From: Cyclobacteriaceae bacterium
GTDB taxonomy: Bacteria > Bacteroidota > Bacteroidia > Cytophagales > Cyclobacteriaceae
Direction of reading: 5' to 3'
Assembly (NCBI GenBank): GCA_965243755.1
Contig: CBDEVW010000004.1
Coordinates: 272,053-336,052, forward strand
Length of the DNA: 64,000 nucleotides
This document shows positions 7,423 through 41,900 of this stretch, piece by piece. The notes beneath the pieces are model-generated. The model saw only the letters and a program-made list of their open reading frames with translations, had not been told where the DNA came from and ran no database searches. A program made the translations under genes and the position numbers. How positions within the stretch are numbered: position 1 is the first letter of the stretch; each line of letters begins with the position of its first letter.

Positions 7423-8547
7423 CTATTCAATAAAAAAAAGTCCCCTTGGATCATTGTAATCTGCAGTAAGCGTCACTTGACCGGAACCATCAAGGTTGGC
7501 CATAAATACACTTCCTGAGTTTCTTTCGGTCCAGTATATTTTATCATTGGTGTTGTCAATCCCGATCCCATATACGCGGTTACCTGTATCCACAAGTGAT
7601 TCTATATTAGAACCGTCCAGGTTGGCTCTCATCAACTGGCCTGTGTCCGAATTATCAAATATAATTTTTTCATTGACCGGATCCACAGTGATACCATATC
7701 CAAAGCCTCCAGCAGTATAACCGATGATTCTGGTCACTCCACTGCCATCTACATTTCCTACCCAAACGGCTTCTGCATCAACTGCAACGCATGTGATGTA
7801 GAGGTCACCATTGTGGAGGTCTAAGCCTACTGGTAGTTCTCCGAGTCCATGTGTGGCATTGTCGTAAAGTACCGTGCTGGTTTTGGTACTAAGATCCACT
7901 TCCCATATGGCATTGATCCCTGTACCGCGATCAGCAACATAAACTTTGTTGTTGGGGATGTCAAGTGCTATGTCTCTCGGTGCTCCAAACACATCGCTGA
8001 TCACCTCAGAATTGCTTCCATCCAGATCTACTCTCATTAATGTAAGATCATCGTCGTTGGTGTAATAGATGTGTTCATTGACCGGATCATACGCAATACC
8101 AGTTCCATACGCTCCAATATCTATGGATCCTCCTCCAATTTCATTGATGCTTCCACCAGCTGCGTCAATAAAGAAGAGCCTTACCAATAAGGCATTCGGG
8201 TCCTTGATCGTGACCTGTTTTTCAATGAAATCCAGGTCATTGTCAGAAGTTACGGTCATTGAAACAGTGTAGGTGCCTGGGTTAGTATACAAATGAGAAG
8301 GGCTTGCCTCGGTAGAGGAGGTGCCATCACCGAAGTTCCATGCATACGCAACACCGCCAGCATCTTCAGTAAGGTAGGTGGTGTTACTAAATGCGACAGT
8401 AGCAGGAGCAAATCCTTCATTTTCAATGGTGAAGCTGTAGTCAGCCACTACCGAACTGGCCTGTGGCACTGGAAACTCGTCATCTCCACAGGCGCCCAGG
8501 GTTATTGAAAGTATCAGCGTTGCTATTATTGATTTTATGCTTTTCAT
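7423..8547 (-). CDS. Lipoprotein: PKD domain + YWTD (LDL-receptor class B type) beta-propeller
   Basis: 374 aa with lipobox LGAC followed by the acidic stretch GDDE. PKD signature WNFGDGTSSTEASPSHLYTNPGTYTVSMTV. Propeller blades: IYYTNDDDLTLMRVDLDGSN, VYVADRGTG, IIFDNSDTGQLMRANLDGSN, IYWTERNSGSVFMANLDGS. Confidence 0.8.
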   Translation of the reverse strand: MKSIKSIIATLILSITLGACGDDEFPVPQASSVVADYSFTIENEGFAPATVAFSNTTYLTEDAGGVAYAWNFGDGTSSTEASPSHLYTNPGTYTVSMTVTSDNDLDFIEKQVTIKDPNALLVRLFFIDAAGGSINEIGGGSIDIGAYGTGIAYDPVNEHIYYTNDDDLTLMRVDLDGSNSEVISDVFGAPRDIALDIPNNKVYVADRGTGINAIWEVDLSTKTSTVLYDNATHGLGELPVGLDLHNGDLYITCVAVDAEAVWVGNVDGSGVTRIIGYTAGGFGYGITVDPVNEKIIFDNSDTGQLMRANLDGSNIESLVDTGNRVYGIGIDNTNDKIYWTERNSGSVFMANLDGSGQVTLTADYNDPRGLFFIE

Positions 8548-32836: not shown

Positions 32837-35800
32837 ATGAAACAACTAGCTCAAATAACAACATTTTTGATGTTGCTCATGTGGGTTTGCCTAGGGGATT
32901 TAGCATCCGCTCCTACACCCACAAGATATGAGTTCCATCATATTGAGGTCGATGATGGCCTTCCAAACGGGGTTGTCCGTACTGTTTATCAAGATCGCAA
33001 AGGCTTCATTTGGATAGGGACAGATGCCGGATTGGTAAGATACGATGGCTATAGCTTCGAAATTTTCCTGAATGAATTTATGGACCGGGTATATTCTCCC
33101 GGAAATATTATTCTTGACCTTGCAGAGGATCAGAACGGTCGCTTGATTGCCGGAACTCAGGCGGGCTTGATTATCCTGGATACAAATACCGAAAAGGTAA
33201 AGCATTACAAACCCATTGAAGGGGACTCCACTTCACTATCTGACCGATGGGTAGAAAATATCCTGGTGGACAGCAAGAACAGAATATGGGCTGCCACGAA
33301 TCAGGGATTACATCTCCTCAACGAGGATGAACAGGGGTTTACCAAATTTCCATCTTTTTCCAGCGCTAAGATATTCACCGGAGCAATCGCCATGTCTTTA
33401 ATTGAAGATGAAGAGGGATTCATATGGCTCACATCAAACAAAGGCTTTCTTTACAAATTCAACCCTGATGATGGATCTGTACAGAAATTTGCATTTCCCG
33501 AAAACCAAAAGCTTGAAGTAATCAGCCTTCTCAAAGACAACTATGGGACAATTTGGCTAGGCACACTTGGACAGGGAATTTGGACATTCAATACTACGAC
33601 CAAAGCGTTTAGCCCCTTCCAGGTCGAATGGAAAAACGGCAACCTTAAGGTAGTCAGAGATTTTCTTGAAGCGAGCGACGGAAGAATATGGATGGCCCTT
33701 GACGGAAATGGTATAGCAATGCATGATCCAGTCACGAAGGAAACAAGCTATCTTCGTTTTGACCCATACATGGAAAATGGCCTCAACACCGACCAATTGT
33801 ATAGTTTATATGAAGATAGGGATGGTAATATTTGGGCAGGAACCTTTAGGAAGGGCATCAACCTATTTTCCGTCAACAAAAAGCAGTTCATCACTTACAG
33901 AGCGATTGCCGGGAAAAGTAGAAGTTTGTCCAACAACTCCGTGATGTCCATGTTGGAGAATGATGATGGTAGGATTTGGGTGGCAACAGACGGTGGTGGC
34001 CTTGATTTGTTTGACCCACGAACCGAAGAGTTTTTGCACTTTAAATACTCAGAGAAAGATCCATATTCCATCAGTTCCAATGTCATTACCGCAGTAGCAA
34101 GTGATCATAACGGCTTGATATGGCTTGGGACCTGGCAGGGGGGAGCTAACTTGTTCAATCCTAAAACCGGAAGATCCAAAAGGTTTTATCACGATCCGGA
34201 TGATGCAAAGACGATTGCCGCCAACGACGTATGGTCAGCGCTTGTTGACTCTGAAAACAATATTTGGTTGGGGACTTTCAATGCCGGTCTTGATCGATAC
34301 GATCCTGTTAAAAATGTGTTCATCCACTATACCGGAGGAGATAAAGACCCCTCCATATTGGGTTGTATCCTGTTTAAAATGTTGGAAGATGATGATGGTA
34401 CACTTTGGATTGCCACAGATAAGGGGTTATTTCAGTTTGATCCTAAATCCGAACGGTTTACTCGATACGTCAATGACAAAGACGATCCCAATTCAATTCC
34501 CGGAAACGATGTGAGAGCCATATATTTTGACGAAAATGGAACTTTCTGGATTGGTACCAATCAGGGCATTTGCCAGTTCGATCGGGAAAAGCGACATTTT
34601 GTATCCCTTGATATCAACGATCAGCTAAAAAATAAGGCAATCTATGGGCTGTTAAGTGATAAAAATAATAACCTCTGGATAGGTTCCAAAGGTGGGCTTG
34701 CCAGGTATAATCTGATTACCAGGGAACTGCGAAATTTTGATAAATCTGACGGGATCCAGGGCGCTAACTTTAATTCCAATTCTTCCATATATACCAAAGA
34801 TGGTTTAATGTTTTTTGGAGGAGTCAATGGAATGACCATGTTTGACCCATTAAATATACGAGACAACCAGATTGTGCCTCCTGTCTACATCAGATCCCTC
34901 TATATATTTGATCAGGAAATTGGAATTGGGGATACATTGGACGGCAGGGTATTACTGCCTCAGGCACTCTATACAATGCCCACCATTGAGCTGGAATACA
35001 GGCAAAATTTTAAGGTGACCTTCGCCTCTCTGGACTATACTTCATCACTTAAGAATCAGTACAGGTACAAACTTGAAGGATATAATTCGGACTGGGTCTA
35101 CACTTCATCGAATAACAGAATTGCATCATATATGAATCTGGACCCGGGTGAATATCGGCTAATAGTTGGCGGTACAAATAGCGATGGGGTTTGGAGTCCT
35201 CACGAACATTCCATCAATATCAATATCAAACCTCCATGGTACATGATCGGTTGGGTGAGGGTACTGGCATTGGTCTTTTTGGTTGGATCGTTGGTGATAG
35301 CGTACAAGATGAGAACCAACATGTTGAAGAGAAGGAGTGTAGAACTGGCCAATCTGGTTCGTGAAAAAACCCGTGAAATCAGAGATAAAAATGAAAGGCT
35401 GGAGTCACTTAATCAGGATCTCATTGAAAGTCTGCATCAAAAGAGTAAAACACTGAAGCAGTTAAGACAAACTCAAAATCAATTGATTGAGTCTGAGAAG
35501 ATGGCCTCCGTGGGGCATCTCGTTGCGGGTCTTGCCCATGAGCTCAATAACCCGATGAGTTTCATTAAGGGAGTGGTTGAGCCCATCAAGATGGATGTGA
35601 TGGAGTTGAAATCTCTATTGCCTGAAGAGCTAAAAGTGGCTCATCAGGAGCTGTTAAGTGAACTGCAGATTCTGACCAGTGGAATGGAGGAGGGAGTTGT
35701 AAAAGCTTCTACAATCATCAAAAACCTAATGGACATCTCTCCACTCAACGCCAACAAAGAAGAGTCTAAAATATGTGTAAAAGAGCTGATCTCAAATGCC

Positions 35801-36220
35801 TCCAAATCAATCAACTTACCTCCGGATATAGTTAATGTGTCTTTGCCTTCCAGCGAAGAAATTACGATTCTGGGTAATCAGATGGAATTAAATCAGGCAT
35901 TGGCCAATGTGATCAGAAACTCTGTTGATGCCATACCCATGGGTGCAATCGGACAAATCAATATAAAGGGATACAGGGAAAATGGTCATGTAATTATTGA
36001 AGTAGAGGACAATGGATTTGGGATGGATAAAAGTACAGTTTCTCAGGTATTTGATCCTTTCTTTACTACAAAAGAACCTGGAAAAGGAAAAGGCCTTGGA
36101 CTATACATAGCCTACGGAATTGTTAAAAAACATGGAGGAGAGATATTTGTTACCAGCCAGCAGGGGATTGGTACTAAATTTACTCTGATGCTACCTCCGG
36201 CACCAGAAAACACCGATTAA
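32837..36220 (+). CDS. Sensor histidine kinase with periplasmic two-component-regulator propeller repeats + Y_Y_Y domain
   Basis: 1127 aa with ~14 repeats of the ..D..G.IW.GT..GL..(Y/F)D type. YRYKLEGYNSDWVY (Y_Y_Y), a TM helix, a coiled coil, H-box SVGHLVAGLAHELNNP and ATPase motifs DNGFGM and GKGKGLGLY. No receiver or AraC domain. Confidence 0.9.
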   Translation: MKQLAQITTFLMLLMWVCLGDLASAPTPTRYEFHHIEVDDGLPNGVVRTVYQDRKGFIWIGTDAGLVRYDGYSFEIFLNEFMDRVYSPGNIILDLAEDQNGRLIAGTQAGLIILDTNTEKVKHYKPIEGDSTSLSDRWVENILVDSKNRIWAATNQGLHLLNEDEQGFTKFPSFSSAKIFTGAIAMSLIEDEEGFIWLTSNKGFLYKFNPDDGSVQKFAFPENQKLEVISLLKDNYGTIWLGTLGQGIWTFNTTTKAFSPFQVEWKNGNLKVVRDFLEASDGRIWMALDGNGIAMHDPVTKETSYLRFDPYMENGLNTDQLYSLYEDRDGNIWAGTFRKGINLFSVNKKQFITYRAIAGKSRSLSNNSVMSMLENDDGRIWVATDGGGLDLFDPRTEEFLHFKYSEKDPYSISSNVITAVASDHNGLIWLGTWQGGANLFNPKTGRSKRFYHDPDDAKTIAANDVWSALVDSENNIWLGTFNAGLDRYDPVKNVFIHYTGGDKDPSILGCILFKMLEDDDGTLWIATDKGLFQFDPKSERFTRYVNDKDDPNSIPGNDVRAIYFDENGTFWIGTNQGICQFDREKRHFVSLDINDQLKNKAIYGLLSDKNNNLWIGSKGGLARYNLITRELRNFDKSDGIQGANFNSNSSIYTKDGLMFFGGVNGMTMFDPLNIRDNQIVPPVYIRSLYIFDQEIGIGDTLDGRVLLPQALYTMPTIELEYRQNFKVTFASLDYTSSLKNQYRYKLEGYNSDWVYTSSNNRIASYMNLDPGEYRLIVGGTNSDGVWSPHEHSININIKPPWYMIGWVRVLALVFLVGSLVIAYKMRTNMLKRRSVELANLVREKTREIRDKNERLESLNQDLIESLHQKSKTLKQLRQTQNQLIESEKMASVGHLVAGLAHELNNPMSFIKGVVEPIKMDVMELKSLLPEELKVAHQELLSELQILTSGMEEGVVKASTIIKNLMDISPLNANKEESKICVKELISNASKSINLPPDIVNVSLPSSEEITILGNQMELNQALANVIRNSVDAIPMGAIGQINIKGYRENGHVIIEVEDNGFGMDKSTVSQVFDPFFTTKEPGKGKGLGLYIAYGIVKKHGGEIFVTSQQGIGTKFTLMLPPAPENTD

Positions 36221-36861
36221 TCTGCCAGTCCATTTTCAATGGCATACCTCACCAACCCTGCAGAGTTCTTTACCTGAAGTTTGCTGATGAGGTTTTTTTT
36301 ATGGGTATGAACTGTGTGTGTGCTGATAAACAAAGTGTCCGCTATTTCTTTGGCGGTATATTCCTCCGCCAGGTACCGAAGGATTTCTTTTTCTCTGCGA
36401 CTCAATTTTACGTTCAAAGTTTGGCTTTCGCCATGGAATACCTGGTTCATGTAGGATTCTTTTACTTCCCTCGAAAAATATTTATTGCCGGCATACAATG
36501 TTTCCAACGCTTCCATGAGCTCTCCTTTTTCGGCATTCTTCAACAAATATCCATCCACCTCTTTTTTGATAAGCTTCTCTATTTTATCAGGGTCATTGTG
36601 TGTGCTGAGGATTAACGTTTTAATGTGAGGATAATCTTTCTTGATGATACTATGAAGCGCTATGCCATCCATCTGTGGCATGCTGATGTCTGTAACCACA
36701 ATATCAGGTTTGATATGGTCCAGTTGGTCCAGCAGTTCTTTGGCTGAAGTCGCCTTACAAGCAATGTTGATATGTTGATCCCTTTCAAAAATAGCAGATA
36801 AGCCATCCAGAAACATGGCATGGTCATCTACCAGCGCTATGTTAATGATTTCATTACTCAT
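36217..36861 (-). CDS. NarL/FixJ (LuxR)-family response regulator
   Basis: 214 aa. Receiver domain (IALVDDH, VVTDISMP, K in ..DGYLLK). LuxR HTH REKEILRYLAEEYTAKEIADTLFISTHTVHTHKKNL. Confidence 0.9.
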   Translation of the reverse strand: MSNEIINIALVDDHAMFLDGLSAIFERDQHINIACKATSAKELLDQLDHIKPDIVVTDISMPQMDGIALHSIIKKDYPHIKTLILSTHNDPDKIEKLIKKEVDGYLLKNAEKGELMEALETLYAGNKYFSREVKESYMNQVFHGESQTLNVKLSRREKEILRYLAEEYTAKEIADTLFISTHTVHTHKKNLISKLQVKNSAGLVRYAIENGLAD

Positions 36862-38995
36862 GTACAGGTAAGTCCAGGTTTACAATAGTACCACGATCAA
36901 TTACTGAGTCAATGTTGAAAATGCCATTTAGTTTCTTTACTCTGGATTGAATGTTTTTCAACCCCATGCCCATTTTGGCCGATTGCTGACAAAAGCCTTT
37001 ACCATTGTCTTCTACCAAAATATTAAGATGACCATCCACTTCATTGATAGAAACTTCAATAAATTCAGCATCAGCGTGTTTTACTATGTTGTTCATCAAT
37101 TCCTGTAAAATACGATATGTCTCCAGCTTTTGGTGATCACTCATATTACTGAATGCCTTGTCGACCGAACAGTTGAATTCTATTTCAAATGGATGGAGTT
37201 GATTCAAATCGTTGATATAATTACTCAAAAATGCTGAGAATCCTACCTCTTTGGATTTTATTGGGGATAAATTGGCGGATATGGACCGAACTTCATGGTA
37301 AGTCTGATCAATGTTCTTTTTGACCTGGGTTAAAACCTCTTGGTCACCATTGGAACCTGAGAGCCTTTCTAACCCGAGTTTAATTCCAGCCAGATTACCT
37401 GCAACACTATCGTGCAATTCCTTTGCAATTCTTATCCTTTCTTTCTCCTGTCCGGCGATATTAGCCTTGATTTCTTTCATTTCATTTTCGCGAATGAGTT
37501 CCTTGGTCTTTTGTCGATTGATTTCTTCCGCTTGTTCTGCCAATTGTTTGGTAGCCCGTTCCTTTTGACGATATATCTCCAACAATATCAGTACAGCCAA
37601 TACGATCAGCGTGGCTACTGATGCAATTGCTACCTGCTTCACTTTTTGTCTGTCGAGTTCGGCCTGTTTAAGCTCTTTTTCTTTTTCCAGTAATGCAATT
37701 TGATTTTCCTGCTGGGCCTGCGCCATTTTCTCTTTCTGCAATGAAACAAACTGAAGTTCATTGGTAGCTTTTAATTCACGAATTTTATTCTCAGCAGCTT
37801 GTGCTTCCAACTGCTCCTGCAACTGCTTCTTTTCAAACTGATTTTGTTGATTGATGATCTCAATTTTTCTTAATTCATTCTCCTTCTGAAGTAGTTTGAT
37901 TTCATGTTCCTTTTCCCTTGCCTCATATTTAATCAGCAGGTCCTCCACCTTGCTACTGGTGTTGACCCGCTCCATACTATCCCGAAAATAAAGATGATCG
38001 ATCATGCTTAAATAGGCAGAATCATACATTCCAAGAATTTCATAAGCAAAAGCAAGGTTGGCATGCAGCAGGTGACTTTGCTTGTATTGGGCCTTATTGG
38101 CGATTTTTAATGCTTTTCTGAAATTAGGAATCGCTTTTCTGCCGTCTCCTTTATTCAGAAAGATCAGCCCACGCTGGTTGTACCGTATGATCAGCTCAAC
38201 ATCTTCAGTCCGATCAGTAAATTCTGCTAAAAGTTGATCTGAGTATTTCAGGGCACTATCCAGCTCTTGTTGATTCTGAAATAACATCACCAGTAGACTC
38301 AAAGGTGTATAGGTACAGTCCTTATCAGGAACTTCTTCGCATACATTCAAAGCAGTTTGCAGGTAATACCGGGCACTATCAAATTCCTTTAATTTGATAA
38401 AAGAAAGGGCCATATTACCCATTACTATTGATTTTAACCTTAAACCTGGGTTTCTATCCAAACTTTTTTTGTAGTGTTTGATTGCCTGATGGTACAGGCC
38501 TTTCTCATTGAAAATGGTTGCGAGATTGTTGATTAACACTGTTGCATCATCTTCAATGTTATGCTGAAGGGCCAGTTCGTATGCTTGCAGGTAATTACTT
38601 GTTGCCAGGTCCAGGTTACCTCTCTCATGATGATGTAACCCCAGTATGCGATAGTAGGTAATGAGTTGAGTGGTGTCATTGAGGTGCTCAATGATTTCCA
38701 GACTTGCATCCAGATGTTCCTGTGATTCAGTGTACCTGCCGTGAAAGATCAATTCTTTCGCGATGCGCAACCGGACATTGCATTCATTTTTGTGAAGTCT
38801 GTATTGAACGCAGCGTTTGAGGGCTTCATTTAGTTTGGATAATGTAGAGTCATTGTGGGCATCATCCAGTAATGATTGAATTTCCAGTTCAACCATTTTA
38901 AGGTCTTGAAACAGGCTGTTTTCATGGCATATACCCACATTACTCACCAGTAATAGTGATAGGAAGAGAGCGATGTTTATGAATAATTGCCTCAT
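36854..38995 (-). CDS. TPR-repeat sensor histidine kinase (HisKA_3 type)
   Basis: 713 aa. Signal, ~8 TPR-like repeats, a long coiled coil, a TM helix, H-box IAKELHDSVAGNLAGI, and HATPase (LVEDNGKGF, GMGLKNIQSR). Overlaps the downstream response-regulator gene by 8 nt. Confidence 0.85.
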   Translation of the reverse strand: MRQLFINIALFLSLLLVSNVGICHENSLFQDLKMVELEIQSLLDDAHNDSTLSKLNEALKRCVQYRLHKNECNVRLRIAKELIFHGRYTESQEHLDASLEIIEHLNDTTQLITYYRILGLHHHERGNLDLATSNYLQAYELALQHNIEDDATVLINNLATIFNEKGLYHQAIKHYKKSLDRNPGLRLKSIVMGNMALSFIKLKEFDSARYYLQTALNVCEEVPDKDCTYTPLSLLVMLFQNQQELDSALKYSDQLLAEFTDRTEDVELIIRYNQRGLIFLNKGDGRKAIPNFRKALKIANKAQYKQSHLLHANLAFAYEILGMYDSAYLSMIDHLYFRDSMERVNTSSKVEDLLIKYEAREKEHEIKLLQKENELRKIEIINQQNQFEKKQLQEQLEAQAAENKIRELKATNELQFVSLQKEKMAQAQQENQIALLEKEKELKQAELDRQKVKQVAIASVATLIVLAVLILLEIYRQKERATKQLAEQAEEINRQKTKELIRENEMKEIKANIAGQEKERIRIAKELHDSVAGNLAGIKLGLERLSGSNGDQEVLTQVKKNIDQTYHEVRSISANLSPIKSKEVGFSAFLSNYINDLNQLHPFEIEFNCSVDKAFSNMSDHQKLETYRILQELMNNIVKHADAEFIEVSINEVDGHLNILVEDNGKGFCQQSAKMGMGLKNIQSRVKKLNGIFNIDSVIDRGTIVNLDLPVHE

Positions 38996-39164
38996 TATGT
39001 GATTGTTGCCGCTAATATAGTACGAAGGTGCATTTTCTTACTGAATATATCTATCACTAATTTTAGTGATTTTTCCATTTGACCATATTTGGTGATGTTT
39101 TCCTGCATCGCTCAATCCTACATTTGTCTTACTATTTAAAACCAAAAAACAAATCAATTTTAAG

Positions 39165-39860
39165 ATGAAAACAGTGAAACCACTTATCATGATGATGGCT
39201 ATCGTAATGATGGCATTTGGAGTACAGGCTCAAAAACTTCCTAAGTTTGGAAGCACTATTGAAAAACAGGTAGGACCTAAGACCGTGAGGGTTCCTTATA
39301 CAGATGTAGTAAGTTATCTCGGATATGCTGCACCTGGTAATGAGGATGAAGTGAAGGATGGTAAAAAATTCTACTACATCTACGTATGGATACCTGCAGT
39401 TGCTCCTGAGTTGGGAGTAAGGATGATGTCGCCGGTTCCTGCAAAATTCAAAGCAAAAGGAGCAATTATTGGAGAAGGTTATGAAGATAATGCCAAGTCT
39501 GATGATTATTTTGATACCTACATTACAATTGAAAGATCCAACATCATTGACAAAGCAAAAATCAGTGAAGATGCAGTGCAAAATGCCAATTGGGTTGTTT
39601 TGGAATACAATGATGACAGCAGCGAAATGCCACAGAACCCGGGTGGGTCTTCTTACAACTCCTTGTTGAGATACAAAAGTGAGGTGAGCAATCCAACTAA
39701 AGCATTAACAGTTGGTCTATACAGAATTGGATTTACAACCTACAAAGTAGGAGAAGTTAAAGGAACATTCCTTGCAGAAGTAGCATCCCCAATAAAATTA
39801 CCTGGAGTAGCTATGGCTAAAACGATTGATGAGCTGGTGAAGCAACTTCAGATCAACTAG
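39165..39860 (+). CDS. LipL32-family protein (homolog of the Leptospira major outer-membrane lipoprotein), SPase I-type signal
   Basis: 231 aa. Blocks match L. interrogans LipL32 as I recall it. Query first, LipL32 second: [16 protein letters not shown] / [42 protein letters not shown] / [38 protein letters not shown] / [21 protein letters not shown] / [33 protein letters not shown] / [24 protein letters not shown]. The signal MMAFGVQAQ has no lipobox Cys. Confidence 0.8.
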   Translation: [231 protein letters not shown]

Positions 39861-40029
39861 TTTTTACGGTACGCAACATGTATTGGGGGCCTTTTATGGA
39901 GGTCCTCAATCTGTCCACAAAATGCATTGATGGTTATTCAATGTTTAATTATAGCTACTTGTTCAGTCTTTTTCTGAGTTTTAATTGGTTAATCGTAGCA
40001 GAACTGGCAAGTACTATGGTTTAGGTTGG

Positions 40030-40056
40030 CCCGGCTATTTATAGTCGGGTTTTCTG
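40030..40056 (+). terminator. Possible terminator downstream of the LipL32-like gene
   Basis: CCCGGC-TATTTATA-GTCGGG (one G-T pair) followed by TTTTCTGGTTT, 170 nt after the stop. Confidence 0.35.
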
Positions 40057-40114
40057 GTTTACAAATATTCTATGTGAACCCGGGATACGCTGAGACGTAT
40101 GACTTTGAATACTT

Positions 40115-40966
40115 ATGAGTTTGCACAAATCTTTAGTAGCATTGAAAAATCACTCAATCAGTTATCATAACAATCGCATCATACTTTCTCACGAACGGAG
40201 GGAGCAGGCTACAATGGAAATTTATCCTTCCAACCACCTTCTGACTTTCATCAGGTCAGGATTACTGAATGTTGAAGTCAATGGAGAGACCCGAAGCTAT
40301 TCTAAAGGTGAATTTGTATTGTTTAAAAAATTTGCTCCTGCAAGAATTACAAAAACCTGGGGTCGCGGGGGATCAATGTTTTCTAGTGTGGTGTTCACAT
40401 TTCAGGAAGATCTGGTTCAAAAGGCATTAATGCAAATGGAATTTGATGATCCAGGCAGACAGGATAATCAGAATCAAAATATCATCGCTATTCATTCAAA
40501 TCCAATATTGGATCAGTTTATACAGTCCCTTGAGTTGTTTTTCGAGCAAAAAGTTGAAATGGATCATGCACTGGCCAATCTTAAGACTATGGAGGTCCTT
40601 GTAGGGCTAATCAGATCAAACAAAAGCATATTTTATGAGCTGCAAAGCTTTGCACAAAGAAGCATTGCGGACTTATACCAATACATGCAATATCACTACA
40701 GGGAAAAGAAGAGCCTGGAAGAATTTGCAAGAGATTCCGGCCGTAGTTTGACGACATTTAAAAAGGAATTTTTTCAACTCTTTCAAACCAGCCCTGGCCG
40801 TTGGTTAAAAATGAAAAGACTTGATCATGCCTACCGACTGCTGAAATTCACAAACCGCAAAGCATCAGAAGTCTACCTGGAATGTGGGTTTGAGGATCTT
40901 GCGCATTTTAGCAAATCCTTCAAAAAACAATTTAATGTCAACCCCTCTGAATTAGCGACTGTCTAG
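40115..40966 (+). CDS. AraC-family transcriptional regulator
   Basis: 283 aa with a cupin-like N-terminal half. C-terminal double HTH: SLEEFARDSGRSLTTFKKEFFQLFQTSPGRWL ... ASEVYLECGFEDLAHFSKSFKKQFNVNPSE. Confidence 0.85.
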   Translation: MSLHKSLVALKNHSISYHNNRIILSHERREQATMEIYPSNHLLTFIRSGLLNVEVNGETRSYSKGEFVLFKKFAPARITKTWGRGGSMFSSVVFTFQEDLVQKALMQMEFDDPGRQDNQNQNIIAIHSNPILDQFIQSLELFFEQKVEMDHALANLKTMEVLVGLIRSNKSIFYELQSFAQRSIADLYQYMQYHYREKKSLEEFARDSGRSLTTFKKEFFQLFQTSPGRWLKMKRLDHAYRLLKFTNRKASEVYLECGFEDLAHFSKSFKKQFNVNPSELATV

Positions 40967-41045: not shown

Positions 41046-41900
41046 ATGAAGACAGTTTTAATAACAGGATCCAGCACCGGATTTGGAAACATATTAGCTC
41101 ATCAACTTTCAGGGCAGAATAAATATCATGTAATCGCGACAATGAGAAATACCAGCAGCAGCAATTACCAGGCAAAGCTTGCACTAGAAAAACTTTCCAA
41201 TGTTGATGTAATGGATTTAGATGTTACCAATGATCAGGGAGTGAAGGATTGCATTGCACAGGTCATTGAAAGGTATGATCGATTGGACATCTTGATTAAT
41301 AATGCCGGCCAATTTGGTGGAGGTCTCCTGGAAGCGCACAGTATCCCTCAGGTTCACAAATTATTCGATATCAATGTGTATGGCCCACTGCGAATGATGC
41401 AAGCGGTACTTCCCCAGATGAGGAGACAAAAAGAAGGACTCATCATTAACATCTCCAGTATGCTAGGCTTTTTTTCTATTCCTCTGAATTCAATTTACTG
41501 TAGCACAAAAGCTGCTTTGGAATCGCTGGTTACCGGATCATATGGAGAGCTAATTCAAAAAGGGGTGGAAAATATATTGATAGAACCTGGTTCATTTCCA
41601 ACAGAACTGTATGAAAAAGCGGGAGTTGTGGCAGACCTCAAAGAGATTACTGAATCATATGAAGGACTATATGAACAGATGAGAGACTTTGCAAATGCAA
41701 AAGTTTACAACGCCATAAAAACCCATAAACCTGATCCTTCTGCAGTCGCCAGAAGAGTGATTCAACTGATTGAAATGAATAAAGGCTCCAGGCCAGTTAG
41801 GAATCCAATTGACCATATTTCGGGAGAGGATTTTACCAACAAATTAATTGGGGAACTCACCGAACTCGCTAATACACAGATGAAGTCTTACGGTTTTTAG
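41046..41900 (+). CDS. Short-chain dehydrogenase/reductase (SDR)
   Basis: 284 aa. TGSSTGFG (TGxxxGxG), NNAG, S..YCSTK (YxxxK). Confidence 0.9.
   Translation: MKTVLITGSSTGFGNILAHQLSGQNKYHVIATMRNTSSSNYQAKLALEKLSNVDVMDLDVTNDQGVKDCIAQVIERYDRLDILINNAGQFGGGLLEAHSIPQVHKLFDINVYGPLRMMQAVLPQMRRQKEGLIINISSMLGFFSIPLNSIYCSTKAALESLVTGSYGELIQKGVENILIEPGSFPTELYEKAGVVADLKEITESYEGLYEQMRDFANAKVYNAIKTHKPDPSAVARRVIQLIEMNKGSRPVRNPIDHISGEDFTNKLIGELTELANTQMKSYGF

Follow-up and report, generated by a model that had tools for sequence, protein, structure and literature searches.

In the 64,000-nucleotide stretch of DNA analysed here (the window), which comes from a marine Cytophagales genome, the open reading frame at 39165..39860 on the forward strand encodes a protein of the LipL32 family. 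We favour, with a probability of about 0.7, a reading in which this protein is soluble, non-lipidated and exported, and in which its gene is regulated by a two-component system. In pathogenic Leptospira no protein is more abundant than LipL32, which is also a major diagnostic antigen; its function is debated and its surface exposure disputed. No new family is added by this analysis, as Bacteroidota homologues have already been published and annotated; it concerns a whole branch of the family that appears to lack the lipid anchor, and for the entries of which 'lipoprotein' is a wrong public name.

Identity and fold of the protein

The coding sequence, which begins at the first start codon past an in-frame stop in the ORF list, specifies 231 amino acids followed by a stop codon. 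A Pfam search matched PF12103 (LipL32) over the full model (1-179 of 179) with E 8.1e-79 and 263.8 bits against a cut-off of 25, the domain spanning residues 39-217 (39279..39815, +). The PDB LipL32 chains 2zz8, 3frl and 2wfk were matched by phmmer with E 5e-27 to 8e-27, and a multiple alignment gave 36% identity to L. interrogans LipL32, the similarity covering the whole domain, with low complexity not its source. An earlier note, made from the sequence alone, had called the product a LipL32 homologue outside Leptospira and quoted two blocks in support; both blocks are present in the open reading frame and align to LipL32 as it had said, and the profile search and alignment that it proposed bore the assignment out. 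In contrast, the NCBIfam model NF038394 (equivalog 'major surface lipoprotein LipL32', lipo_LipL32) returned 106.2 bits against a cut-off of 300, and on these scores the product is a homologue of LipL32 and not an equivalog.

According to an AF2 model (pLDDT 79.4, pTM 0.74), the product would adopt the LipL32 jelly-roll fold, with the complete LipL32 Ca2+-binding cluster kept. When this model was searched with Foldseek, the top eight PDB matches were all LipL32 chains (E 1.6e-17 to 1.5e-14, TM 0.64-0.68), of which the Ca-bound LipL32 2wfk was the best (E 1.6e-17, TM 0.68), and the first non-LipL32 match followed at E 1e-3; the structural comparison that had been suggested thus agreed with the homology. 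Computation places the protein in the same Pfam family and the same fold as Leptospira LipL32 (2ZZ8, 3FRL, 2WFK), and the two also share an LPxFGS-like motif directly after the signal peptide. They differ in that the PNPPKSFDDLKNID insertion and the C-terminal tail of about 20 residues of Leptospira LipL32 are absent here, the C-terminus of the AF2 model being a 10-residue helix, and in that the host here is a non-pathogenic marine bacterium and not a pathogenic Leptospira.

Five residues within the segment 39513..39656 (+), namely D117 and T118 (39513-39518), D150 and D151 (39612-39617) and Y164 (39654-39656), were mapped by alignment to D132, T133, D164, D165 and Y178 of LipL32, which are the Ca-cluster residues listed in PMC8951592. 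The comparison of Ca sites that the earlier note had asked for thus found all five residues identical in the two proteins, whereas the acidic loop is shorter here (NDDSSE against DDDDDGDD in Leptospira LipL32) and of low pLDDT (52) in the AF2 model. The D-T-D-D-Y cluster was invariant in 120/120 nearest homologues, and from these conserved residues the product is predicted to bind Ca2+.

Signal peptide and absence of a lipid anchor

Residues 1-22 (39165..39230, +) were read from the sequence as a Sec/SPase I signal peptide, with a basic n-region, a 15-residue hydrophobic core, V at -3, A at -1 and Q at +1, and with predicted cleavage before Q23. There is no Cys anywhere in the 231 residues, hence no lipobox for signal peptidase II, and there is no in-frame start codon further upstream that could add one. 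The earlier note was therefore right about the missing lipobox Cys and about the SPase I type of the signal, but not about its cleavage, placed at AQ|K; the -3/-1 rule and the Bacteroidota Q-rule, which describes Gln at +1 of SPase I substrates (PMC5837995), favour A22 over Q23 and with it VQA|QKL. A22, Q23 and K24 were invariant or nearly so in 48 aligned homologues, and conservation of A22 and Q23 reached 90% or more. The same genome encodes a glutaminyl cyclase of the plant type (PF05096, E 3.7e-91), which together with VQA|QK gives the product the features of a Q-rule SPase I substrate.

Judging from these features, Sec would export the product and signal peptidase I would cut it between A22 and Q23, with the new N-terminal Gln probably cyclised to pyroglutamate by the glutaminyl cyclase of the genome. 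Pfam and NCBIfam searches (E up to 1) detected neither a T9SS sorting domain of type A or B nor any domain besides LipL32, and because both a Cys and such a sorting domain are missing, the mature protein should remain unattached in the periplasm or leave it, and not be anchored in a membrane. Leptospira LipL32, too, lies below the cell surface (PMC3544172), as a family of periplasmic proteins would, and the likely location of the two proteins is alike.

The earlier note had described this signal for one copy, but it is not special to that copy, as the signal peptide ends in xAQ and is followed by (K)LxxFGS, with no lipobox, in all 120 nearest homologues, and an SPase I/Q-rule signal is present in 59/89 family representatives (50% identity clusters). 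The family also includes a divergent 'AQRL' clade of Bacteroidia. The members from Leptospira, Alteromonas and Planctomycetota carry lipoboxes. As read from its sequences, every Bacteroidota-type member examined has the non-lipidated signal, and if an entire branch works without a lipid anchor, then membrane tethering would not be essential to the function of the fold.

Distribution and origin of the family

Homologues outside spirochetes had also been described as sparse. This was not the case in the protein database, where we found 1042 homologue clusters at 90% identity and 128 at 50%, many of them already named 'Lipl32 family lipoprotein' at NCBI; yet the family is rare per genome, being found in 1/400 sampled Bacteroidota species, in 3/24 and 0/12 members of the same taxonomic family (first and second sample) and in 2/5 of the same genus. 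Orthologues from Cellulophaga, Formosa and Ulvibacter appear in Table 2 of Gardiner et al. 2014 (PMC4080168), who noted the patchy distribution and discussed horizontal transfer; on the signal type or regulation of the Bacteroidota homologues, our literature search found nothing beyond that listing. The NCBI/UniRef entries from Aquimarina, Formosa, Cellulophaga, Fulvivirga, Flammeovirga and Reichenbachiella that carry the name 'Lipl32 family lipoprotein' belong to the same subfamily (66-86% identity) and share with the protein described here its length, AQ|KLxxFGS N-terminus, Ca residues and, often, a kinase/regulator neighbourhood, and their sequences do not support the name 'lipoprotein'. 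PtlL32 of Pseudoalteromonas tunicata and the Alteromonadales 'LipL32 family surface lipoproteins' are likewise environmental marine homologues, but the representative from Alteromonas has a lipobox-type signal and groups with Leptospira LipL32, whereas the protein here has the SPase I type and lies on the Bacteroidota side.

The public name would imply a true outer-membrane lipoprotein like LipL32, and the NCBI names of close homologues, the family membership and the lipoboxes of the Leptospira, Alteromonas and Planctomycetota members could all be cited for it. The sequence already contradicts this reading, which we regard as scarcely credible: neither the product nor an upstream extension supplies a Cys, all 120 nearest homologues have xAQ|K instead of a lipobox, and the score of 106 bits falls well below the 300 that the equivalog model requires. 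A recent horizontal transfer out of spirochetes or Gammaproteobacteria, which the earlier note had entertained and which would make the neighbouring genes irrelevant, is in our judgement improbable. It draws on the very patchy distribution (1/400 species, 3/24 of the first family sample, 2/5 of the genus), on the transfer proposed for the family in PMC4080168 and on a quick ML tree of 89 representatives, which put this clade among lipobox clades and so suggested two origins of the SPase I signal. That placement was overturned by an AU test, in which all Q-rule (Bacteroidota-type) sequences as one clade were not rejected (p 0.73) and the tree so constrained had the better log-likelihood (+20.7). 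Against a recent transfer, too, the nearest homologues are all Bacteroidota, the Flavobacteriaceae form nearly one group within the clade, the gene has a GC content of 39.8% against 40.1% for the window and hence no compositional signal of transfer, searches of 72,556 plasmid and 50,697 phage records found no mobile copy, and the gene is syntenic with the adjacent kinase and regulator in two congeners. Across families and orders LipL32 retains 68-76% identity while the linked kinase retains 29-37% and the linked regulator 44-51%, which argues for an old module under strong constraint. The LipL32-like protein is indeed unusually constrained for a small secreted protein and far more conserved than its neighbours, and identity of about 70% across orders, while the regulators drifted to 30-50%, implies a conserved partner or ligand. 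No empty site was definable in the congeners without the gene: none of the five congeners has a close orthologue of the downstream SDR gene, and even in G003 the flanking sequence is not the same.

The adjacent kinase and regulator

The two-component module that the earlier note had seen beside the gene was recovered in Pfam and NCBIfam searches. It consists of a sensor histidine kinase (36854..38995, -), transcribed divergently from the LipL32 gene, and a NarL/LuxR-type response regulator (Response_reg plus GerE; 36217..36861, -) in an operon with it. The kinase comprises a signal peptide, an extracytoplasmic TPR/coiled-coil region of about 430 amino acids, one TM helix, HisKA_3 and HATPase_c. 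Members of the kinase cluster were found within 6 kb of 36/79 LipL32 loci and of the regulator cluster within 6 kb of 29/79, and the loci so linked are labelled Flavobacteriales, Cytophagales and Bacteroidales, two of these orders resting partly on MAG labels. A full-length kinase orthologue occurs only in the congeners that have LipL32 (G003 and G004) and is missing from G001, G002 and G005, and in two congeners the whole kinase-regulator-LipL32 module is syntenic. When kinases from distant LipL32 loci were searched against this genome, their best match among at least 10 paralogues was the adjacent kinase, with 279 vs 143 bits and 224 vs 143 bits for the adjacent kinase and the next paralogue. 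The kinase-regulator pair is thus orthologously linked to the LipL32 gene across three named orders. A convergent Y_Y_Y/propeller kinase at 32837-36220 was considered as a part of the module and rejected, as it is adjacent to the module in no other locus.

In 51/79 loci LipL32 is accompanied by a small co-operonic membrane protein of 140 amino acids, cl1. A tblastn search for a copy or remnant found nothing meaningful in the window or elsewhere in the genome, and because of this the cassette here is, as far as its sequence can be read, a reduced one, from which the lineage has lost cl1 to leave the LipL32 gene alone; in this it differs from the Bacteroidota entries named above. In Flavobacteriaceae the LipL32 gene ends a separate operon with other cargo, and some Aquimarina genomes hold solo copies with no kinase nearby.

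Promoter, operator and transcription unit

An E. coli-type sigma-70 scan of the 169-bp upstream region gave nothing meaningful. A promoter alignment instead brought out TACATTTG (39119..39126, +), a match to the Bacteroidota -7 promoter box, the consensus of which we take to be TAnnTTTG, and the TTTG was invariant in 13/13 aligned promoters. Ahead of this box lie an inverted repeat, TCACTAATTTTAGTGA (39054..39069, no strand assigned), conserved in the aligned promoters and a candidate operator for the adjacent LuxR-type regulator, and a third half-site, GGTGATGT (39091..39098, +), which lies near -33 and follows the right arm of the repeat after about 27 bp, the whole reading TCACT-N6-AGTGA plus GGTGAT. 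The 13 promoters in which the repeat is conserved come from Cytophagales and Bacteroidales loci, and it was also found upstream of the operon in Flavobacteriaceae. Its strict form was present in 32/87 operon upstream regions, where 0.022 are expected per 300 bp, and it is enriched about 17-fold over background at LipL32 operon promoters; 29/51 module-linked copies had it vs 3/36 solo copies, and 22/51 module-linked promoters thus lack the strict palindrome. The 6.14-Mb genome holds only two copies of the composite motif (repeat plus GGTGA), the one described here and another that falls within a coding region. In the closest relative (L005) the operator is degenerate, with AGGTA for AGTGA and GGCGAT for GGTGAT.

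Downstream, an RNA fold of 39858-40070 contained a 13-bp hairpin that starts 22 nt past the stop codon and has no U-tract (39882..39910, +), and a terminator-like hairpin followed by TTTTCTGGTTT (40028..40051, +), which precedes the next gene, an AraC-type regulator at 40115. Transcription would be monocistronic, from a Bacteroidota-type promoter with a predicted start near 39133, in keeping with the earlier description of the gene as standing alone. Orthologous conserved adjacency together with a conserved promoter operator was taken to mark the target of a two-component system, and both were found here. We propose that the divergent TPR-HisKA_3 kinase and NarL/LuxR regulator would switch on the LipL32 gene via TCACT-N6-AGTGA plus GGTGAT, both the binding of the regulator to this candidate operator and the transcriptional control being predicted from sequence.

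A different transcription factor might be the one that uses this operator. On that view, or if adjacency and motif are coincidental, the product would be a constitutive structural or housekeeping protein of the periplasm, which we consider unlikely. TPR-HisKA_3 kinases are abundant paralogues (16-42 matches per congener genome), many promoters lack the strict motif and LipL32 is constitutively abundant in Leptospira (PMC3544172), all of which would suit such a protein; it is at odds with the best-match searches, which support the orthology of the linked kinases, with the joint presence or absence of kinase and LipL32 within the genus, and with a motif that is enriched about 17-fold and, in its composite form, essentially unique in the genome. 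The protein might also be more than a target of the two-component system and serve it as a periplasmic co-sensor, which binds Ca2+ or a ligand and reports to the TPR domain of the kinase, as LuxP does for LuxQ and TorT for TorS. Both the LipL32-like protein and the kinase sensor are predicted to face the periplasm, TPR domains bind proteins, the two genes are orthologous and close neighbours in the three named orders, and the operator stands between the divergent transcription units, from where it could control both. The conservation of the two is unequal, at about 70% for LipL32 and about 30% for the kinase sensor, which argues against a co-evolving interface, and neither the solo Aquimarina copies nor the separate Flavobacteriaceae operon would be expected of a co-sensor; we hold this role to be rather doubtful and prefer that of a regulated target.

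Possible role of the protein

For the Bacteroidota as a whole, we put forward tentatively, and at somewhat less than even odds, that their LipL32 proteins are soluble, pyroglutamate-capped periplasmic Ca2+-binders that act as output or partner of dedicated envelope-sensing two-component systems, here a TPR-HisKA_3/LuxR pair acting via TCACT-N6-AGTGA, and that are co-controlled with T9SS adhesins in relatives. If this is true, the LipL32 family has two ways of exporting its members, of which the lipid anchor seen in Leptospira is just one, and a regulated and genetically tractable non-pathogen system would be available for working out the long-debated function of LipL32. A dedicated sensor-regulator pair with a defined operator would make the inducing condition searchable in non-pathogenic marine bacteria, and that condition might give a clue to what the family originally did.

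Among members from outside Leptospira, PtlL32 alone has a phenotype, its mutant attaching poorly to ECM and to the algal host Ulva (PMC4080168), and it offers the best functional parallel to hand. The analogy of the product with an adhesin is weak, because an unanchored secreted protein would be an odd adhesin and because in Leptospira itself a role in ECM binding is disputed (PMC3544172). Taken with the occurrence of the operator in relatives before T9SS-secreted FG-GAP adhesins, PtlL32 hints weakly at a Ca2+-dependent binding protein in a surface-colonisation programme. These further operators were found upstream of T9SS-sorted cl7 proteins in L022 and L060 and on the opposite strand in L025, and in L078 the operator precedes the cl1 gene, which is followed by cl7.

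Identification and predicted fold of the LipL32-like protein

The ORF at 39165..39860 (+), which opens at the first start codon past an in-frame stop, encodes a protein of 231 aa that, from its sequence features, is most likely a soluble, SPase I-processed, probably pyroglutamate-capped and predicted Ca2+-binding periplasmic protein of the LipL32 fold. A search with the Pfam model PF12103 (Lipl32; cut-off 25 bits), as proposed in the earlier note, matched residues 39-217 along the full length of the model (positions 1-179 of 179) at 263.8 bits (E 8.1e-79), and the sequences of the LipL32 crystal structures 2zz8, 3frl and 2wfk matched the query at E 5e-27 to 8e-27. This confirmed the note's claim of a LipL32 homolog outside Leptospira, and both sequence blocks that it had quoted as resembling LipL32 aligned as described. 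Homologs outside Leptospira are already known, and the gene joins an annotated subfamily. With the NCBIfam equivalog model for LipL32 proper the query scored 106 bits, below the cut-off of 300; by these scores it belongs to the family without being an ortholog as NCBI strictly defines the term.

An AlphaFold2 model of the query, built from an input alignment of 48 homologs (mean pLDDT 79.4, pTM 0.74), was compared with the PDB using Foldseek. The top eight matches were all LipL32 chains, the best being the Ca-bound 2wfk (E 1.6e-17, TM 0.68), and the first non-LipL32 fold appeared at E 1e-3. The comparison with the LipL32 crystal structure suggested by the earlier note also supported its claim.

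The calcium cluster of LipL32 consists of D132, T133, D164, D165 and Y178 (PMC8951592), for which the equivalents in the query by alignment are D117, T118, D150, D151 and Y164. This D-T-D-D-Y set is kept in 120/120 nearest homologs, and the divergent Bacteroidia clade has mostly D-P-D-(N/D)-x at the same positions. Given the conserved cluster, the protein would be expected to bind Ca2+ in the periplasm. In comparison with Leptospira LipL32, the acidic loop is shorter (NDDSSE vs DDDDDGDD), and both the PNPPKSFDDLKNID insertion and the C-terminal tail are absent from the query. AlphaFold2 confidence was low over the query's acidic loop.

Signal peptide type and predicted export

The 231-aa product contains no cysteine, and therefore cannot be lipidated. 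The earlier note had described an SPase I-type signal without lipobox Cys, which held, but the cleavage site that it had given, AQ|K, places Q at both -1 and -3; the predicted cut after A22 agrees with the SPase I rule, the residues at -3 and -1 being V and A. The mature protein would begin with Gln (Q type, the Bacteroidota Q-rule; PMC5837995), probably capped as pyroglutamate, and the window's genome has a gene for a glutaminyl cyclase of the plant type (PF05096, E 3.7e-91). The Q-type signal is not special to the window copy. The signal peptide ends in xAQ then (K)LxxFGS, without a lipobox, in 120/120 nearest homologs, and A22, Q23 and K24 show little or no variation among the aligned homologs (n=48). 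Signal types were assigned across the whole family in 89 full-length rows (79 representatives at 50% identity and 10 members of the window's clade), of which 59 were Q type, 26 carried a lipobox, three had another SPase I-type signal and one was a fragment. The 26 lipobox carriers include Leptospira LipL32, one Alteromonas protein and one Planctomycetota protein; among the Q-type representatives is a divergent one from a Bacteroidia MAG. A quick tree that grouped the window's clade with those carrying a lipobox was rejected, as a tree with all Q-type proteins together was better in the AU test (log-likelihood +20.7, p 0.73). On the unrooted family tree, a single change of signal type, placed at the phylum boundary, would be enough to explain the data.

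Pfam and NCBIfam scans of the query detected neither a T9SS sorting domain nor any domain besides LipL32. Since there is also no cysteine or lipobox and the signal is of the SPase I type, the protein is predicted to be free in the periplasm and possibly released, a fate in keeping with experiments in which Leptospira LipL32 proved to be subsurface (PMC3544172). The clade-wide lack of lipidation, of which we found no report in the literature searched on LipL32 homologs, makes the public name 'lipoprotein' a misnomer. NCBI has given the product name 'Lipl32 family lipoprotein' to proteins without a lipobox cysteine, among them the database representatives P0003, P0011 and P0012; such entries appear to have taken the name over from the family.

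Linkage to a kinase-regulator pair and a candidate operator

As stated in the earlier note, the gene adjoins a two-component module, in which a TPR-HisKA_3 histidine kinase gene (36854..38995 (-)), divergent from the LipL32-like gene across a shared intergenic region of 169 bp, is accompanied by a NarL/LuxR response regulator gene (36217..36861 (-)). The gene also looks monocistronic, as claimed: a gap of 254 bp separates it from the downstream AraC-type gene and contains a 13-bp hairpin (39882-39910) and a terminator-like hairpin then T-run (40028-40051).

All ORFs within 6 kb of a LipL32 homolog were clustered for 79 loci, many with taxon labels assigned by MAG submitters. The regulator was present in 29/79 loci and the kinase in 36/79, the latter probably an underestimate because in some Aquimarina loci (e.g. 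L040) the pair lies just past a large divergent gene and beyond the 6 kb of flanking sequence retrieved for most other loci. The most frequent partner (51/79 loci, e.g. L019:6786-7214) was cl1, a multi-pass membrane protein of 140-142 aa without a Pfam match, usually encoded in the same operon as the LipL32 homolog. In loci labelled Cytophagales and Bacteroidales, regulator and kinase are divergent from LipL32, which is followed by cl1; in Flavobacteriaceae the order is kinase, regulator, cl1, an optional Zn-ribbon protein and SIMPL protein, then LipL32. The window and its two congeners with LipL32 have kinase, regulator and LipL32 without cl1, and neither a homolog nor a remnant of cl1 was found in the window's genome. 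Among five congeners, a full-length kinase ortholog (60-61% identity) occurred only in the two with LipL32; the other three had nothing but paralogs, with identity of no more than 38% and matches mostly confined to the kinase half. Kinases from distant loci, one from Cyclobacteriaceae (279 vs 143 bits) and one from Tamlana (224 vs 143 bits), each matched the window's LipL32-adjacent kinase best, near full length, among 10 or more paralogs. This co-presence within the genus and these best matches support orthology of the LipL32-linked kinases.

Alignment of the 128 nt upstream of the gene in 13 loci labelled Cytophagales or Bacteroidales revealed a common architecture: an inverted repeat TCACT-N6-AGTGA (39054-39069), a third half-site GGTGATGT (39091-39098), a TAnnTTTG box (TACATTTG, 39119-39126; TTTG invariant), which is the Bacteroidota -7 consensus, and an A-rich leader ahead of the ATG. 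Flavobacteriaceae have a similar repeat, TCACYAnAAArGGTGT, usually after CCCTGTTTTCAGGG, 110-160 bp ahead of cl1, with which the operon opens. The strict repeat was found within 300 bp upstream of 32/87 operon starts (background 0.022 per 300 bp), in 29/51 module-linked copies vs 3/36 solo copies, a comparison for which the p-value overstates the case as the loci are related. In the window's 6.14-Mb genome the composite pattern of repeat plus GGTGA occurs twice, at the LipL32-like promoter and once within a coding region. We infer that the repeat is the operator of the adjacent LuxR-type regulator, through which expression would be controlled by a dedicated TPR-kinase/LuxR-regulator pair, although the site of the closest relative is degenerate and one-mismatch variants occur in many promoters. 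Neither an operator of LipL32 homologs nor their orthologous linkage to a two-component system was reported in the literature searched on these homologs. A second copy of the palindrome (CACCAGTAATAGTG, 38946-38959) lies in the kinase gene, within its 20 opening codons, ~220 bp ahead of the LipL32 start. The congener loci L005 and L006 both have a strict match at this offset, and the copy may either serve autoregulation or be due to chance.

Distribution and age of the module

The earlier note's description of homologs outside spirochetes as sparse is outdated for sequences. In a database of 5.8 billion proteins, 1042 clusters at 90% identity matched the query, many of them named 'Lipl32 family lipoprotein' (Aquimarina, Formosa, Fulvivirga, Flammeovirga, Reichenbachiella, Cellulophaga and others), and a full HMMER pass over 50%-identity representatives gave 128 clusters. 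Cellulophaga, Formosa and Ulvibacter orthologs were listed by Gardiner et al. 2014, who noted a patchy distribution and proposed horizontal transfer (PMC4080168). Per genome the family is rare: homologs were found in 1/400 evenly sampled Bacteroidota species, in 3/24 and 0/12 same-family genomes in two samples, in 2/5 congeners and in 0/16 genomes from other families of the order. Among public records, the closest comes from a Cyclobacteriaceae MAG (86% identity).

Horizontal transfer was considered possible in the earlier note, but no sign of a recent transfer was found: GC content is 39.8% for the gene vs 40.1% for the window, no copies were found in the plasmid and phage records searched, and the marine-clade tree largely tracks taxonomy, with Flavobacteriaceae nearly one group. 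Two database representatives, P0204 (1651 aa) and P0235 (288 aa), matched short parts of the query in 7 and 5 separate stretches, respectively; with N-termini lacking a bacterial signal peptide they seem atypical of the family, and were left out of the trees. Most telling is the comparison with the neighbours: identity of the window's proteins to those of other families or orders is 68-76% for the LipL32-like protein, as against 29-37% for the linked kinase and 44-51% for the regulator. This marks the module as old and the LipL32-like protein as unusually constrained.

Possible cellular role

The candidate operator also lies ahead of other genes in relatives. In L022 (7438 and 10426) and L060 (2142-2168) the element stands ahead of large proteins of FG-GAP type that carry a T9SS sorting domain of type A or type B; in L078 (961) it precedes a cl1 gene, then a T9SS-sorted FG-GAP-type protein and a PorP/SprF-like gene; and in L025 (4284) it stands ahead of such a protein on the opposite strand, with the half-site in the intergenic region upstream of cl1. 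These placements suggest that the regulon includes adhesins in some lineages. In most Aquimarina loci, T9SS-sorted proteins of cluster cl7 are encoded divergently from cl1 across that intergenic region. Such putatively co-regulated adhesins, together with the attachment phenotype of PtlL32 in P. tunicata (PMC4080168), are pointers to a surface-colonisation programme. The extreme sequence conservation of the LipL32-like protein and its lack of an anchor of any kind would fit equally well with a conserved periplasmic partner, one possibility being the kinase's own TPR domain.

Variable surroundings of the gene

None of the five congeners has a close ortholog (E <= 1e-60) of the short-chain dehydrogenase gene downstream (41046-41900), and the region downstream of the LipL32-like gene is thus accessory and variable. 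On the other side, the propeller/Y_Y_Y kinase gene (32837-36220), convergent with the regulator gene, is not conserved beside the module in any other locus; unrelated large genes take its position in other lineages. In many Aquimarina genomes there are two LipL32 paralogs, separated by 0.3-4 kb (e.g. L007:3501-4184 and 7679-8362; L008; L013; L014), some pairs enclosing an SPFH/Band-7 protein and two genes of no known kind. The second copies, and solo copies between genes of the neighbourhood clusters cl13 and cl3/cl4, have neither operator nor kinase, and one chromosomal site in Aquimarina seems to hold cassettes of variable size.
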